From a virus (taxonomy: Duplodnaviria > Caudoviricetes): a DNA stretch of 35,441 bases. Every line of letters begins with the position of its first letter. Positions within the stretch are counted from its first letter, which is position 1. The notes below the pieces were generated by a model, which ran no database searches, was not told where the DNA came from, and saw only the letters and a program-made list of their open reading frames with translations. The translations under genes and the position numbers were made by a program. Where the stretch lies: the IMG/VR virus record IMGVR_UViG_3300005805_000243, positions 1-35,441 of that record; one strand, 5' to 3'. Shown here piece after piece: positions 1 through 9,476 of the stretch.

Positions 1-3000
1 CTGTATAACCAATAACTCCTTGTGAACCAGTGTATCCGATGACTCCTTGAGATCCTGTATTTCCTGTATTTCCTGTATCACCTTTGGAACCAGTATATCC
101 TGTATTACCAGTTTCGCCTTTAGAACCTGTATATCCGATGACACCTGGTGTTCCTGTCGAACCAGTATATCCTGTATTTCCTGTATCACCTTTTGAACCA
201 GTGTATCCAATAATGCCTTGAGAACCTGTGTATCCAATTTCTCCTTGAATTCCTTGTGAACCGGTATATCCTGTATTTCCTGTGTCGCCTTTGGAACCTG
301 TATAACCAATGACTCCTTGTGAGCCTGTATATCCTAGTGACCCAGTGTAACCAATGTCACCCTGTGAACCTGTATATCCAGTGTTTCCAGTGTCACCTTT
401 GGATCCAGTGTATCCAATTTCTCCTTGAATTCCTTGTGAGCCGGTGTATCCTGTATTTCCTGTGTCACCTTTGGATCCAGTGTATCCAATGACTCCTTGA
501 GAACCTGTGTACCCGATGACTCCTTGAATACCTTGTGAACCTGTATAACCTATAACTCCTTGAATGCCTTGTGAACCAGTGTATCCAATTGAACCAGTGT
601 AACCAATATCTCCCTGTGATCCAGTGTATCCAATCGAACCAGTATATCCAATGATACCTTGAATACCTTGTGAACCAGTATATCCAATGGAACCTGTATA
701 TCCTATATCGCCTTTTGAGCCTGTATAACCAATAATGCCTTGAGATCCAACATAACCTGTATCACCTCTGTCACCAGTTCTTGCGAAAGTGATGACAACA
801 TTTGTCATATCTGAGAGAGAAGTGGTTCCAGAAAGATATGATACTGGAACATTAAAATAATTTGTTCCATGTGTATGCGTTCCCGTAATAGAGAACATTG
901 CATAATTTAAAGTATTTGCTTCTTCAGCTAAAGAGAAATGTCCTTTTATTGCTGAGGAAGAATCATCAATTGTTTGAAGAAATGCAGATACATCAACTAG
1001 ATTTTTATCATCATCATGAATTATTAATTGTGATACACTTGAAAAATTAATATTATCAAAATTTAATTTTCCTTGCCCAGGATCAATTGTTGTTGTCTGT
1101 GTATCATAAATGTATTCAAAAGAAGCTCCACCAAAGTCTCCTTTATCGCCTTTTGAACCAACATAACCAACGTCACCCTTAGAGCCAGTATATCCTATAA
1201 TTCCTTGAGAACCTGTATAACCAATTGAACCAGTATAACCTATTTCACCCTGTGAACCTGTATAACCTATAGAACCAGTATAGCCTATAGAACCAGTGTA
1301 TCCAATTGATCCGGTATATCCTGTATCACCAAAAGATCCTGTGTAACCAGTATCACCAAAAGAACCAGTGTATCCAGTGTCACCAAAAGAACCTGTGTAA
1401 CCGATTGAACCAGTGTATCCAGTGTCACCGAATGAACCGGTATAACCAATGACTCCTTGTGAACCTGTGTATCCTAAAGAACCTGTATATCCGATGACAC
1501 CTTGTGAACCTGTATATCCAATAGAGCCGGTGTAACCTATGGAACCTGTATACCCAATTTCTCCTTGAATGCCTTGCGAACCGGTATATCCTAATGAACC
1601 TGTGTATCCTATGTCGCCTTTGGAACCAGCATAACCTTTGTCACCAAAAGATCCCGTATAACCAAATGAACCAGTATAACCTATGTCTCCTTGAGAACCT
1701 GTATATCCGATGACACCCTGTGAACCCGAATATCCAATGTCTCCTTGTGAACCAGTATAACCTGTGTCTCCTTGTGAACCAGTATATCCAAAGGAACCAG
1801 TATACCCTATATCACCTTTGGATCCTGTATAACCTAAAGAACCCGTATACCCTATATCACCTTTTGAACCGGTGTATCCAAAGGAGCCAGTATATCCGAT
1901 AACACCTTGTGAACCTGTATAGCCAATTGATCCAGTATAACCTGTGTCACCAAATGAACCAGTATAACCAAGTGAACCAGTATAGCCAATGACACCTTGT
2001 GAGCCAGTATAACCTATGTCGCCCTGTGAACCAGTATAACCTATGTCGCCCTGTGAACCTGTATATCCAAAGGAACCAGTATATCCAATTGAACCTGTAT
2101 ATCCAATTGAACCTGTATAGCCTATATCTCCTTGAGAGCCTACATAACCAGTTTCACCTTGTGAACCTGTATAGCCTATAGAGCCAGTATAACCTAATGA
2201 ACCTGTGTAACCTAAAGCGCCTATGGAACCGACATAGCCAGTTTCGCCTTTGTCACCAGTTCTATCAAAACTTATGGTAATATCTAATTCATCAGTTAAA
2301 GATGTGGCGCCGTCAACATATGAAACTGGCACTCTTAAAAATGTAGTGTTATCAATTAATGCGCCAGTAATATGAAAAACAGAAAAGTTGGAGACATTTA
2401 AACTTTCTGTTATTGTTATGTGACCTCTGATTGCAGAAGATGGATCGTCAATTGTTCTTAAAAAGTTTCCAACTGAAACTGAATTTTTTTCAGTGGTGTT
2501 GATGACTAATTCTGTCGCGCTTGTAAATGTTGTATTATTAAAGTTTAATCTACCAGACCCTGGATCTGCGGTTGTTCCAACATTATCATAAGTATATTCA
2601 AATGCGACACCACCAGCTCTTCCTATACCTCTTGAACCAGTATAGCCAAGACTTCCTAATGAACCAACATAACCAGTATCACCTTGTGAACCTGTATAAC
2701 CAATATCACCAAAGGAGCCTGTATATCCAAGCTCACCTTGAGCGCCTCTAGAGCCTGTGTATCCTATAGAACCTGTGTACCCTATAGAACCTTCGGATCC
2801 TGTATAACCTAAACTTCCCTCTGAACCTACATATCCAGTATCACCAAGTGAACCAGTGTAACCGACGCCTTGTGAACCTGTATATCCCAAATCACCAAAA
2901 GAGCCAGTGTAGCCAATGACACCTTGAGAACCGGTGTATCCAATAGATCCAGTATATCCTATAGAACCCGTGTAGCCCAAATTGCCTTGTGAGCCCGCAT

Positions 3001-9000: not shown

Positions 9001-9476
9001 GATATAACATTGCACAAATAAGAAATTTGATAGCACATTGGGCTGAAAGATACGATTATCTTTTCTCCGTAGACAGTGATATTGTCTTTGAAAAAGATAC
9101 GCTGAAAAAATTATTGAGTCATGATAAGGATGTGGTGAGCGGTCTATACGTTCAAAGAAAAGAAGAAAAGGTTCTAGAAATTTATCGTATAAACAAAAGA
9201 GGTGGAGTTTCTAATGTAACTTATGAAGATTTGTCTAAAGAATCTTTGGCGAGGATTTCAGCTTGTGGCTTTGGTTGTGTTCTGATAAAATCAAAAGTAA
9301 TAAGAAAGATTGGTTATCCACAATTTATATATCGCGAAGCTCTAGATCACAAGCACACCGTTTCAGAAGATGTTCATTTCTGTGCAAGAGCTATTGAAGA
9401 AGGTTTTGATATATGGGCAGACACCACAATCCTATGCGAACACATAGGAAATAAAAAATATAAAGTTATCGGGTAA
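6093..9476 (+). CDS. Multidomain glycosyltransferase: N-terminal GT-B (GT4-like) plus three GT-A (GT2-like) domains
   Basis: The start is more likely ATG 6093 (GGAG at 6081-6084) than 6039. GT4 part: GLGGSE and ETFGISSLE (E-x7-E). GT2a (from ~7428): ISIISTFYNCEKYIQKCIDSVISQDY...IDDYSTD...LLDGDD. GT2b (from ~8174): FTIIIPT...ANDDIV...FGDD. GT2c (from ~8889): ILIAIPT...SVDSDIV...GFGCVLIK...SEDVHFC. Confidence 0.92.
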   Translation: MTTIAIIDIIGLTYDGTTLSKRGLGGSESAVILISKELQKQGFDVTVFNNCINDDSSEGIYDGVNYIDLLRLKNNRNYNFDIVISSRTVIPFVAEKHWPTFGQDIAAHNYPHPHYFKHIKDNAKLKVVWMHDTFCRGDHLIEEMLLEGDIDELFTLSDFHTSYVTNCDHGRKRNFEVLKNKIFITRNGIQKHKPYVDISQKDPDLFVYNSSVTKGMVPLVENIWEKIKTNIPSAKLKVIGGFYRFKNSQPDEQEKKWRQMISEPKYKNLDIDFTGIIRQDEIAEILSKASFMIYPPAFPETFGISSLESLYYNTPLISSRFGALEEIAVEQACWLMNYPIEPNGLFPFINSEEQEAKFIELVLRAHKDKYLHQQKMYYCNTIKEFCGWDSVALQWKQHLLKKVGEYLPVDDYRKISYINDRIHTIFGRRFSNREEWNTFKTQEQPISIISTFYNCEKYIQKCIDSVISQDYENYKLYLIDDYSTDNTVEIVKMKLSSFAPKIKEKIIFITNDENRGAVRNQIEIIKNCVDNEDIVILLDGDDSFVNDNNILNYFNNLYQDGQTEFTYGSCWSMCDNIPLVSQPYPEEIKNNRDYRKYRFNWILPYTHTRTFKAKLVKNIHDNNFKDSKGDWYKAGGDGAVFYSVIEQADPEKIKVVQDIFYNYNDMNSLNDYKINSELQNKNAREISNRTPSLNYFTIIIPTMWRCQEIFLRGLTNYINHPLINDIIIINNDVNKTPDWNILNHEKIRVINQKENIYVNKAFNIGVELSKNEKLCFANDDIVFDMRLMNKLYNRIIPENGAHGIITGEAKFGHPPTTDGAINFLEWRPGYIIHGFGQIMIMHKKNWIPIIDDLNLYFGDDYIFHMNLMKGVKNYLIYNIFHEALMAQTTKDPAISEGMYEKEKPHWEKWFFENPLPSVKEEVKQIAPIKEKKKILIAIPTAKYIESETFKSIYDLEVPDGYETNFQFFYGYNIAQIRNLIAHWAERYDYLFSVDSDIVFEKDTLKKLLSHDKDVVSGLYVQRKEEKVLEIYRINKRGGVSNVTYEDLSKESLARISACGFGCVLIKSKVIRKIGYPQFIYREALDHKHTVSEDVHFCARAIEEGFDIWADTTILCEHIGNKKYKVIG

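Follow-up and report, generated by a model that had tools for sequence, protein, structure and literature searches.

A four-domain glycosyltransferase paired with collagen-like proteins as a candidate fibre-glycosylation system in T4-like phages

In this study, a stretch of phage DNA of 35,441 bp (IMG/VR virus record IMGVR_UViG_3300005805_000243, about 21% complete; the whole stretch is called the window below) was analysed with respect to two neighbouring genes, one coding for a collagen-like protein and the other for a glycosyltransferase (GT) of four domains, D1 to D4 (Table 1). We consider it probable, at roughly 0.68, that this soluble enzyme O-glycosylates the phage's own collagen-like proteins, which carry the repeated motif G-[Y/F]-x-G-S and are predicted to be virion fibres. 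Judging from the sequences, the acceptor residue would probably be the Ser of the motif, with Thr being possible. D1 is the module whose presence follows that of the motif and is therefore the likely initiating transferase, with D2-D4 as likely extenders. To our knowledge, virion glycosylation in tailed phages has been documented for few cases.

The association of enzyme and motif was surveyed from both sides. On the enzyme side, 90 GT-selected loci were grouped into 36 clusters at 90% identity (six re-fetches were dropped). A G[YF]xGS collagen was seen in 25 of these clusters, and in 17 of the 18 that had at least 5 kb of upstream sequence. The enzyme gene was divergent from its upstream neighbour in 23 of 40 cases, 20 of which faced a G[YF]xGS collagen. 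On the collagen side, a DNA pattern scan gave an estimated ~850 stretches, and among the 72 records longer than 20 kb that were examined, mostly partial, full-length D1 was present in 44 (15 of the 20 at ≥100 kb and 5 of the 9 complete ones). The four complete records without D1 were two giant-virus bins and two small phages, all with other collagen types. Sister phages were compared at 26 gp13 loci whose upstream sequence was 7 kb or longer, the positive rows coming mostly from the enzyme or collagen searches and not from a random sample; 13 loci had both genes, 13 had neither, none (0/26) was discordant, and the gp13 tree contained 4 presence/absence changes. Seven records with neither gene gave 0 motif matches over the whole record, though they were only 9-42% complete. 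The pair was retained with differing order, orientation and distance (head-to-head, in tandem or tens of kb apart) and spanned distant gp13 lineages. The survey of co-occurrence that an earlier note on this DNA had proposed was thus favourable in both directions, with the two genes gained and lost together among sister phages.

The type of enzyme corresponded to the type of collagen repeat. D1 (≥100 bits) adjoined 23 of 48 G[YF]xGS contigs, 0 of 57 (GYT)n contigs (pattern (GYT)3) and 0 of 77 Pro-rich contigs; one (GYT)3 locus had a 76-bit D1 match, below the 100-bit threshold. A family of GT2 enzymes with tetratricopeptide repeats (GT2-TPR) adjoined 8 of the 57 (GYT)n contigs and none of the 48 G[YF]xGS or 77 Pro-rich ones. 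Excluded from this flank comparison were L058 (no run), L068, L080, L106 and L113 (other collagen types), and L086, L092 and L329 (<4 kb). Over whole records, D1 was found in 0 of 36 control records, and GT2-TPR in 12 of 21 (GYT)n records and in none of the 17 Pro-rich or 26 G[YF]xGS records; 7 of the (GYT)n records had supplied the GT2-TPR search seeds, and both complete non-seed records were positive. In the complete small phage G043 (L283:9227-19985), the (GYT)n collagens have no Ser, and two collagen genes flank the gene for a GT2 enzyme in which TPRs were detected. Another complete small phage, G020 (L289:11188-13428), has a (GYT)n collagen without Ser and a GT2 enzyme, and both phages also carry GT-D-like and methyltransferase genes. 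The (GYT)n collagens and their GT2 enzymes make up a parallel system, and among the records tested this system and the GT4 family excluded each other.

In the window collagen, 193 G-[Y/F]-x-G-S units were counted, including 162 copies of GYTGS. Every G-[Y/F]-x-G was followed by Ser (193/193), x was Thr in 163 of the 193, and no other window open reading frame (ORF) of ≥100 aa contained the motif. In 25 collagens of GT-selected loci, Ser followed G[YF]xG in 99.1% of 806 cases, a figure that is slightly circular, these collagens having been pre-filtered for at least five motifs; Phe stood in place of Tyr in more than one third of the units, and x was Thr in 82.5%. The motif Ser codons were 4254 TCN and 2066 AGY. 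Because both codon families are used, Ser is kept as a residue and not through copying of a DNA repeat. The earlier note had described a plain GYTGSX hexapeptide repeat with three hydroxyls per unit, and neither part of this description held. Successive G[YF]x units were 2 triplets apart in 77 cases, 3 in 89, 4 in 14 and more in 2, and Ser alone is fixed, Tyr being widely swapped for Phe in relatives. As read from the sequences, the conserved feature of the repeat is an aromatic ring plus Ser, not three hydroxyls.

The collagen-like gene starts with TTG at 6013, with a Shine-Dalgarno sequence (GAGGAG) 8 nt 5′ of the start. Because the ORF is open at the contig end, the C-terminus is missing and the protein is at least 2004 aa long. 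A contig from public run X1, possibly from the same sample as the record, covered 5636-6129 with 0 differences. Its 537 Gly-X-Y triplets are distributed over 11 runs, the shortest of 9 triplets and the longest uninterrupted ones of 179, 126 and 86; runs of at least 6 contiguous triplets, the criterion for a collagen-like protein, are therefore present. In a collagen-type helix the rise is 0.286 nm per residue, at which the visible triplets would span ~460 nm. The PHROG matches were to tail-fibre families and were driven by the repeat; the protein is called a predicted virion fibre because of its genomic context, namely a T4-like tail module and an LtfC-like gene. The runs are interrupted by four non-collagen inserts, two of ~49 aa (A type) and two of ~120 aa (B type). 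The A-type insert is present in other phage collagens too, and the B-type insert is common among G[YF]xGS collagens. No Pfam family was found for the latter, and the Atlas clusters nearest to B2 were unnamed and viral. In a tblastn search of a collagen piece against GenBank phages, the small insert region alone matched, the low-complexity filter making this search uninformative for the repeat.

Results for the enzyme gene confirmed the arrangement described earlier, a Gly-X-Y gene of more than 2000 aa divergent from a 1127-aa GT gene 79 bp away. The proposed domain order GT4+GT2+GT2+GT2 stood for D1 (GT4) and for D2 and D3 (GT2-like); the fold of D4 is closer to A197 of Sulfolobus turreted icosahedral virus (STIV) than to a typical GT2. 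No membrane segment was found in the enzyme, the highest 19-residue hydropathy being 1.38, which indicates a soluble protein. The model of D1 had a predicted local distance difference test score (pLDDT) of 82.5, and its top Foldseek matches were GT-B enzymes, mostly GT4; D1 matched PF00534 at 38.4 bits, above the cut-off, and both Glu residues of E300-x7-E308 were 100% conserved in 203 aligned rows. PF00535 matched at 102 bits in two stretches, D2 and D3, the assignment of D3 being the weaker one. Invariant residues were D539-G-D541-D542 and D637 in D2, N778-D779-D780 and D859 in D3, and D994-x-D996, E1092-D1093 and the C-terminal H1117 in D4. Fold matches of D2 were generic GT2s including GalT1, and a weak generic GtrB-like match (phrog_841, E 1e-5) covered 110 aa only.

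D4 was modelled with a pLDDT of 94.4, and its nearest solved structure was STIV A197 (PDB 2c0n), with Z 20.3, a root-mean-square deviation of 2.0 over 164 residues and 21% identity. The next structural matches were Mnn9 (Z 17.6), residues 295-519 of LH3 (Z 16.4) and residues 252-455 of mimivirus R699 (Z 16.2), and GT2 enzymes scored 5-7 Z units below the nearest structures; Foldseek placed A197, COLGALT1, R699 and LH3 first, in this order. The likeness of D4 to collagen glycosyltransferases was considered as evidence for the acceptor and rejected, the aligned stretch belonging to the C-terminal accessory part of R699 and not to its catalytic domain. K438 of R699 has been placed in the accessory domain (PMC12279948), and because the matched stretch includes this residue, the likeness names no acceptor. 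Naming an acceptor from the other folds was likewise rejected, with D1 leading to generic GT4s and D2 to generic GT2s.

The 79-bp gap between the two genes contained the perfect T4 late motif TATAAATA once per strand, at 6047-6054 (+) and 6085-6092 (-), the whole window having 4 perfect copies. The late-promoter motifs on both strands that the earlier note had pointed out were therefore confirmed. Late-only expression of the enzyme was rejected, a conserved σ70 site lying upstream of its gene as well. This site scored best of 21 σ70 sites in 5800-10400, where the total count was no higher than chance. Forty distinct enzyme starts were surveyed, from GT-selected and collagen-selected loci mixed and with near relatives included. 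Upstream of 12 of them the late motif stood on the coding strand, for which base shuffling gave a mean of 0.93 and a maximum of 5 in 1000, and upstream of 13 it stood on the opposite strand; a σ70 site was present in 13 (shuffle mean 0.57, maximum 4 in 500), its spacer being always 17 nt. Since both kinds of site are found upstream, production of the enzyme both early and late is probable. Early production would fit modification of the chains before trimerisation, but equally fits action on the host.

Table 1. Positions of the collagen-like gene, the glycosyltransferase gene and associated features in the window
Feature	Position	Strand	Remarks
Collagen-like protein gene	2..6013	(-)	2004 codons; Pfam Collagen, E 1e-212
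Insert A1, small non-collagen domain	4016..4162	(-)	aa 618-666
Insert A2	3005-3151	(-)	near-identical to A1
Insert B1, non-collagen domain	2258..2620	(-)	~120 aa, aa 1132-1252
Insert B2	776-1123	(-)	second copy of B1
Divergent control region	6014..6092	both	79 bp, between collagen and GT genes
σ70-type site TTGACA-17-TAAAAT	6039-6067	(+)	overlaps late motif
GT gene	6093..9476	(+)	ATG start, 1127 aa; divergent from collagen gene
GT domain 1 (D1)	6093..7397	(+)	aa 1-435; GT-B fold, GT4-like
GT domain 2 (D2)	7410..8177	(+)	aa 440-695; GT2-type GT-A
GT domain 3 (D3)	8178..8837	(+)	aa 696-915; GT2-like
GT domain 4 (D4)	8880..9476	(+)	aa 930-1127; GT-A, phrog_1574
LtfC-like gene	9466..9804	(-)	112 aa, predicted fibre anchor; phrog_3304, E 2e-27

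The enzyme family comprised at least 1772 protein clusters (matches among 7990 scored candidates), and in viral stretches at least 571 members were confirmed and ~690 estimated. D1 is its constant module. Among the 120 closest homologues, 79 had the order D1-D1-D2-D4 and 41 contained D3, which is thus an optional module, and D4 was frequently a separate gene in relatives. A methyltransferase was found in at least 15 of the 38 distant representatives scanned (five best families per protein considered). Of the 50,697 GenBank phage records searched, 109 matched and none of these covered 80% of the enzyme. The GTDB matches were two phage-like contigs only, L202 and L203, from gammaproteobacterial metagenome-assembled genomes; each has T4-like neck genes and three collagens, and they are probably phage DNA binned with bacteria, giving at most a weak host hint.

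Several relatives showed further arrangements. Stand-alone D4-like genes annotated as hypothetical were found close to baseplate and tail genes in cyanophage S-SM2 (SSM2_091, L293:7968-8735) and in a methanogen virus (vir323_00011, L294:7381-7980, phrog_1574); both products are likely A197-like glycosyltransferases. In L010 (L010:1385-12926), the enzyme homologue is split into D1-D2-D3 and D4 genes and is divergent from a 107-aa gene and a gene for a 2491-aa protein. The latter has 24% Ser+Thr, no collagen repeats and no G[YF]xGS, and is a possible alternative acceptor. The siphovirus-like record G065 appears to consist mostly of structural genes; in it, an LtfC-like gene precedes the G[YF]xGS collagen (L292:14848-17312). 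Immediately upstream of the enzyme gene in L024 is a 300-aa ORF, possibly a glycan-tailoring gene, the N-terminus of which we take to resemble the binding motif for 3′-phosphoadenosine-5′-phosphosulfate (PAPS) of sulfotransferases.

The placement of the pair at the edge of a tail module agreed with the earlier description, matches to gp53, gp5, gp25, gp6, gp7 and gp8 of a T4-like myovirus baseplate being found at 14345-35224. The GT gene sits antisense between the collagen and LtfC-like genes, and an LtfC-like small gene was found again near the GT in other loci; the window copy scored 20.8 bits against PF23926, below the cut-off of 27. LtfC presumably corresponds to p132 of phage T5. The collar formed by p132 is the anchor for the side fibres of T5 (PMC10038345). 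The gene at 10819-12132 (-) codes for a 437-aa protein, the C-terminal half of which is like E2/CAT-type acyltransferases (Atlas score 0.93, HRVYDG motif), and N-terminal ExxH-like motifs suggest a ferritin-like domain. It was considered as a glycan-tailoring partner and rejected, being present in 1 of 36 other records (G078, enzyme-positive). In the baseplate module, the gp5-like protein (29058-31532, -) has an oligonucleotide/oligosaccharide-binding (OB) domain, no lysozyme match and a long C-terminus rich in Gly, Ser, Leu and Asp. Its gene is followed, in spike-tip position, by a Pro-rich 100-aa gene with no Pfam or PHROG match. The gp7-like wedge protein (21985-25443, -) contains an inserted beta-propeller-like region with Lactonase/SGL matches.

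A mechanism can be proposed as follows. The enzyme would be transcribed from the host-σ70 promoter and again from the late promoter, and so would already be there by the time the late fibre chains are made. Its GT4 domain, the constant module, would read the sequence aromatic-x-Gly-Ser and attach the first sugar, taken from a nucleotide-sugar of the host, most likely to Ser (Thr being possible). The GT-A domains D2-D4 would then extend the glycan, and swappable GT and methyltransferase modules in relatives would vary it. The sugars may help the proline-free chain to hold a triple helix and may coat a fibre several hundred nanometres long. A triple helix of (Gly-Pro-Thr)10 forms only when glycosylated (PMC11923368), and because the bare peptide does not fold, a stabilising role for the sugars is plausible. 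A wider scheme is offered tentatively, as a possibility that we rate below even: aquatic myoviruses may use a sequon-directed glyco-collagen code, in which a phage-specific GT4 reads G-[Y/F]-x-G-S and primes Ser, and the glycan built by the fused GT-A and methyltransferase modules varies between strains and takes the place of proline/hydroxyproline in stabilising fibres that measure hundreds of nanometres. The phages with (GYT)n and GT2-TPR would reach the same end, so that repeat and enzyme types would be matched, mutually exclusive pairs.

Several observations weigh against glycosylation of the collagen-like proteins by this enzyme. The (GYT)n and Pro-rich controls are mostly from other phage lineages, which makes lineage a confounder, and the contigs are not independent, so that Fisher P values overstate the association. 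Of the 4 changes on the gp13 tree, no more than 2 are required by branches with good support. G065 (L292; 26 kb, with a completeness rating of 85%) carries a G[YF]xGS collagen but gave no match to D1, D2, D4 or GT2-TPR; it is either a fragment or a phage that uses an enzyme from another source. G021 (115 kb, 32% complete) and several further partial records are also without D1. No cultured phage is among the carriers of the full-length enzyme, and the enzyme has no TPR (by Pfam or NCBIfam) or other recognisable protein-binding domain. Some further points of this kind are best considered with the explanations that they would favour. The σ70 site is as frequent upstream of the enzyme as the late motif (13 vs 12 of 40, with 0.57 expected for the former), which also suits early action on the host. 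The enzyme might accordingly alter the host surface (lipopolysaccharide (LPS), O-antigen or another envelope glycan), early in infection, excluding other phages or changing recognition, and stand among fibre genes because the region is a host-recognition island. This is how GTs have been read in host-recognition clusters of pelagimyophages (PMC7029224) and in cyanophage S-SCSM2R (PMC12801897), and the fused GT4/GT2/methyltransferase relatives do resemble polysaccharide-building enzymes. We nevertheless regard it as unlikely, since it leaves unexplained why the enzyme tracks one repeat type, why Ser is invariant and why (GYT)n phages have a different transferase. Moreover, the enzyme is without a membrane segment, and no flippase or lipid-carrier gene was recognised by Pfam or PHROG in the window, where ~21% of the genome is visible. 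Similarly improbable, in our estimation, is that the enzyme glycosylates virion proteins broadly (capsid, tail and other Ser/Thr-rich fibres), with collagen being at most one target. The L006-L011 cluster (L006, L007, L008, L010 and L011; contigs <13 kb) would suit it, since the full enzyme is accompanied there by a small divergent gene and the 2491-aa Ser/Thr-rich protein, and the upstream sequence, of up to 9.3 kb, contains no G[YF]xGS collagen; so would the stand-alone D4-like genes in many cyanophages. D4 also resembles STIV A197, a proposed capsid-protein glycosylator (PMC10551542), and mycobacteriophage capsids are glycosylated (as cited in PMC11256854 and PMC12619734). Such breadth fits poorly with the collagen found in 17 of 18 informative clusters and faced directly by 20 of 23 divergent enzyme genes, and with a motif confined, among window ORFs of ≥100 aa, to the collagen. 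Shared inheritance of a mobile block, with an enzyme acting on DNA or a small molecule, seems to us very improbable. In its favour, the two genes are part of a hypervariable island, and in such a region neighbours would co-occur through the exchange of blocks; there are well-known phage GTs that act on DNA (PMC12619734); and the solved structures nearest to D1 are small-molecule GT4s (MshA, sucrose-phosphate synthase), the protein O-GlcNAc transferase GtfA being at rank 46. However, the pair is kept through differences in order, orientation and spacing and in gp13 lineages that are far apart, and an invariant Ser written in two codon families is not what hitchhiking alone would predict.

Polyglycine-II-type bundles occur in phage adhesins, and a further alternative, on a separate axis and compatible with glycosylation, is that the fibre is a single-chain polyglycine-II/polyproline-II bundle or an extended brush with no triple helix. 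The composition of the window collagen, unlike that of typical bacterial collagens (PMC8968730), would suit such a structure: Pro makes up 0.7% of the protein (0.2% of X and 1.1% of Y positions), and X positions are 37% Ser and 36% Tyr. This alternative is considered rather unlikely, in view of the uninterrupted runs of 179, 126 and 86 triplets, the Thr content of Y positions (41%), which is as in bacterial collagens, and 23 KGD/KGE triplets, a salt-bridge motif of triple helices (PMC11923368).

If glycosylation of the collagen-like proteins by this enzyme is true, glycosylated fibres would be common in large aquatic phages, given at least 1772 protein clusters and ~690 viral stretches, none full-length in GenBank phages. 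Some GTs of host-recognition islands, now ascribed to changes of host LPS, would also have an alternative reading. One soluble protein and one five-residue motif make a testable enzyme/acceptor pair for how proline-poor prokaryotic collagens stay folded, and the enzyme is possibly a new sequon-specific protein O-glycosyltransferase. No description of the enzyme family or the motif was found in the literature searched, which left out most subscription papers and all supplements; gene tables of phage surveys could list such genes.

Among known systems, SgtA of Clostridioides difficile adds sugar to Thr and Ser of collagen peptides from BclA3 (PMC7157674), and there, as here (79 bp; Thr at 41% of Y), a soluble GT gene lies directly beside a Thr-rich collagen-like gene. 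SgtA is described in the same source as a 358-aa GT-A plus TPR protein, the target being Gly-Pro-Thr repeats of a spore protein, whereas the phage enzyme has a constant GT-B/GT4 module, three fused GT-A domains and no TPR. The phage repeat is the proline-free G-[Y/F]-x-G-S, with one GPT among 537 triplets. It is the GT2-TPR enzyme of (GYT)n phages that has SgtA-like architecture, the likeness being one of architecture and not of sequence. Serotype conversion of the GtrABC type involves a membrane flippase, a polytopic transferase and a bactoprenol GT, of which the window, with ~21% of the genome visible, shows the weak phrog_841 match only, with no membrane segment in the enzyme. Mimivirus L230 and R699 and human LH3 and COLGALT1 glycosylate collagen-like proteins (PMC4691112, PMC12279948), and D4 shares the GT-A fold of R699, LH3 and COLGALT1 (Z 15-16). 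These enzymes act on hydroxylysine and need lysyl hydroxylase; no hydroxylase domain was found by Pfam in the enzyme or in 20 window proteins, with ~21% of the genome visible, and Lys makes up 4.5% of Y positions in the window collagen. STIV A197 is an essential viral GT-A proposed to glycosylate the capsid protein or virion (PMC10551542), but is a stand-alone archaeal-virus enzyme corresponding to one of the four phage domains.

Mycobacteriophages are tailed phages that glycosylate their own virion proteins (Freeman et al. 2023, as cited in PMC11256854 and PMC12619734). They differ in having several separate GT genes, and the targets named in these citing passages are capsid and tail-tube subunits, not collagen fibres. 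In Paramecium bursaria chlorella virus 1 (PBCV-1), A064R and A111/114R are multi-domain proteins, each domain of which adds one sugar or methyl to the virion glycan (PMC7019647). A064R is like the phage enzyme in being a virus-encoded multi-domain enzyme, and the phage relatives also fuse methyltransferases; unlike the phage case, PBCV-1 is an algal virus with N-glycans on its major capsid protein, and no homology is claimed. By analogy, the phage system would resemble SgtA-BclA3 in target and PBCV-1 A064R in architecture, yet it would fall outside the SgtA type, having no TPR and no GPT repeat. Virus-encoded glycosylation of virions and glycosylation of collagen Thr are each already known.

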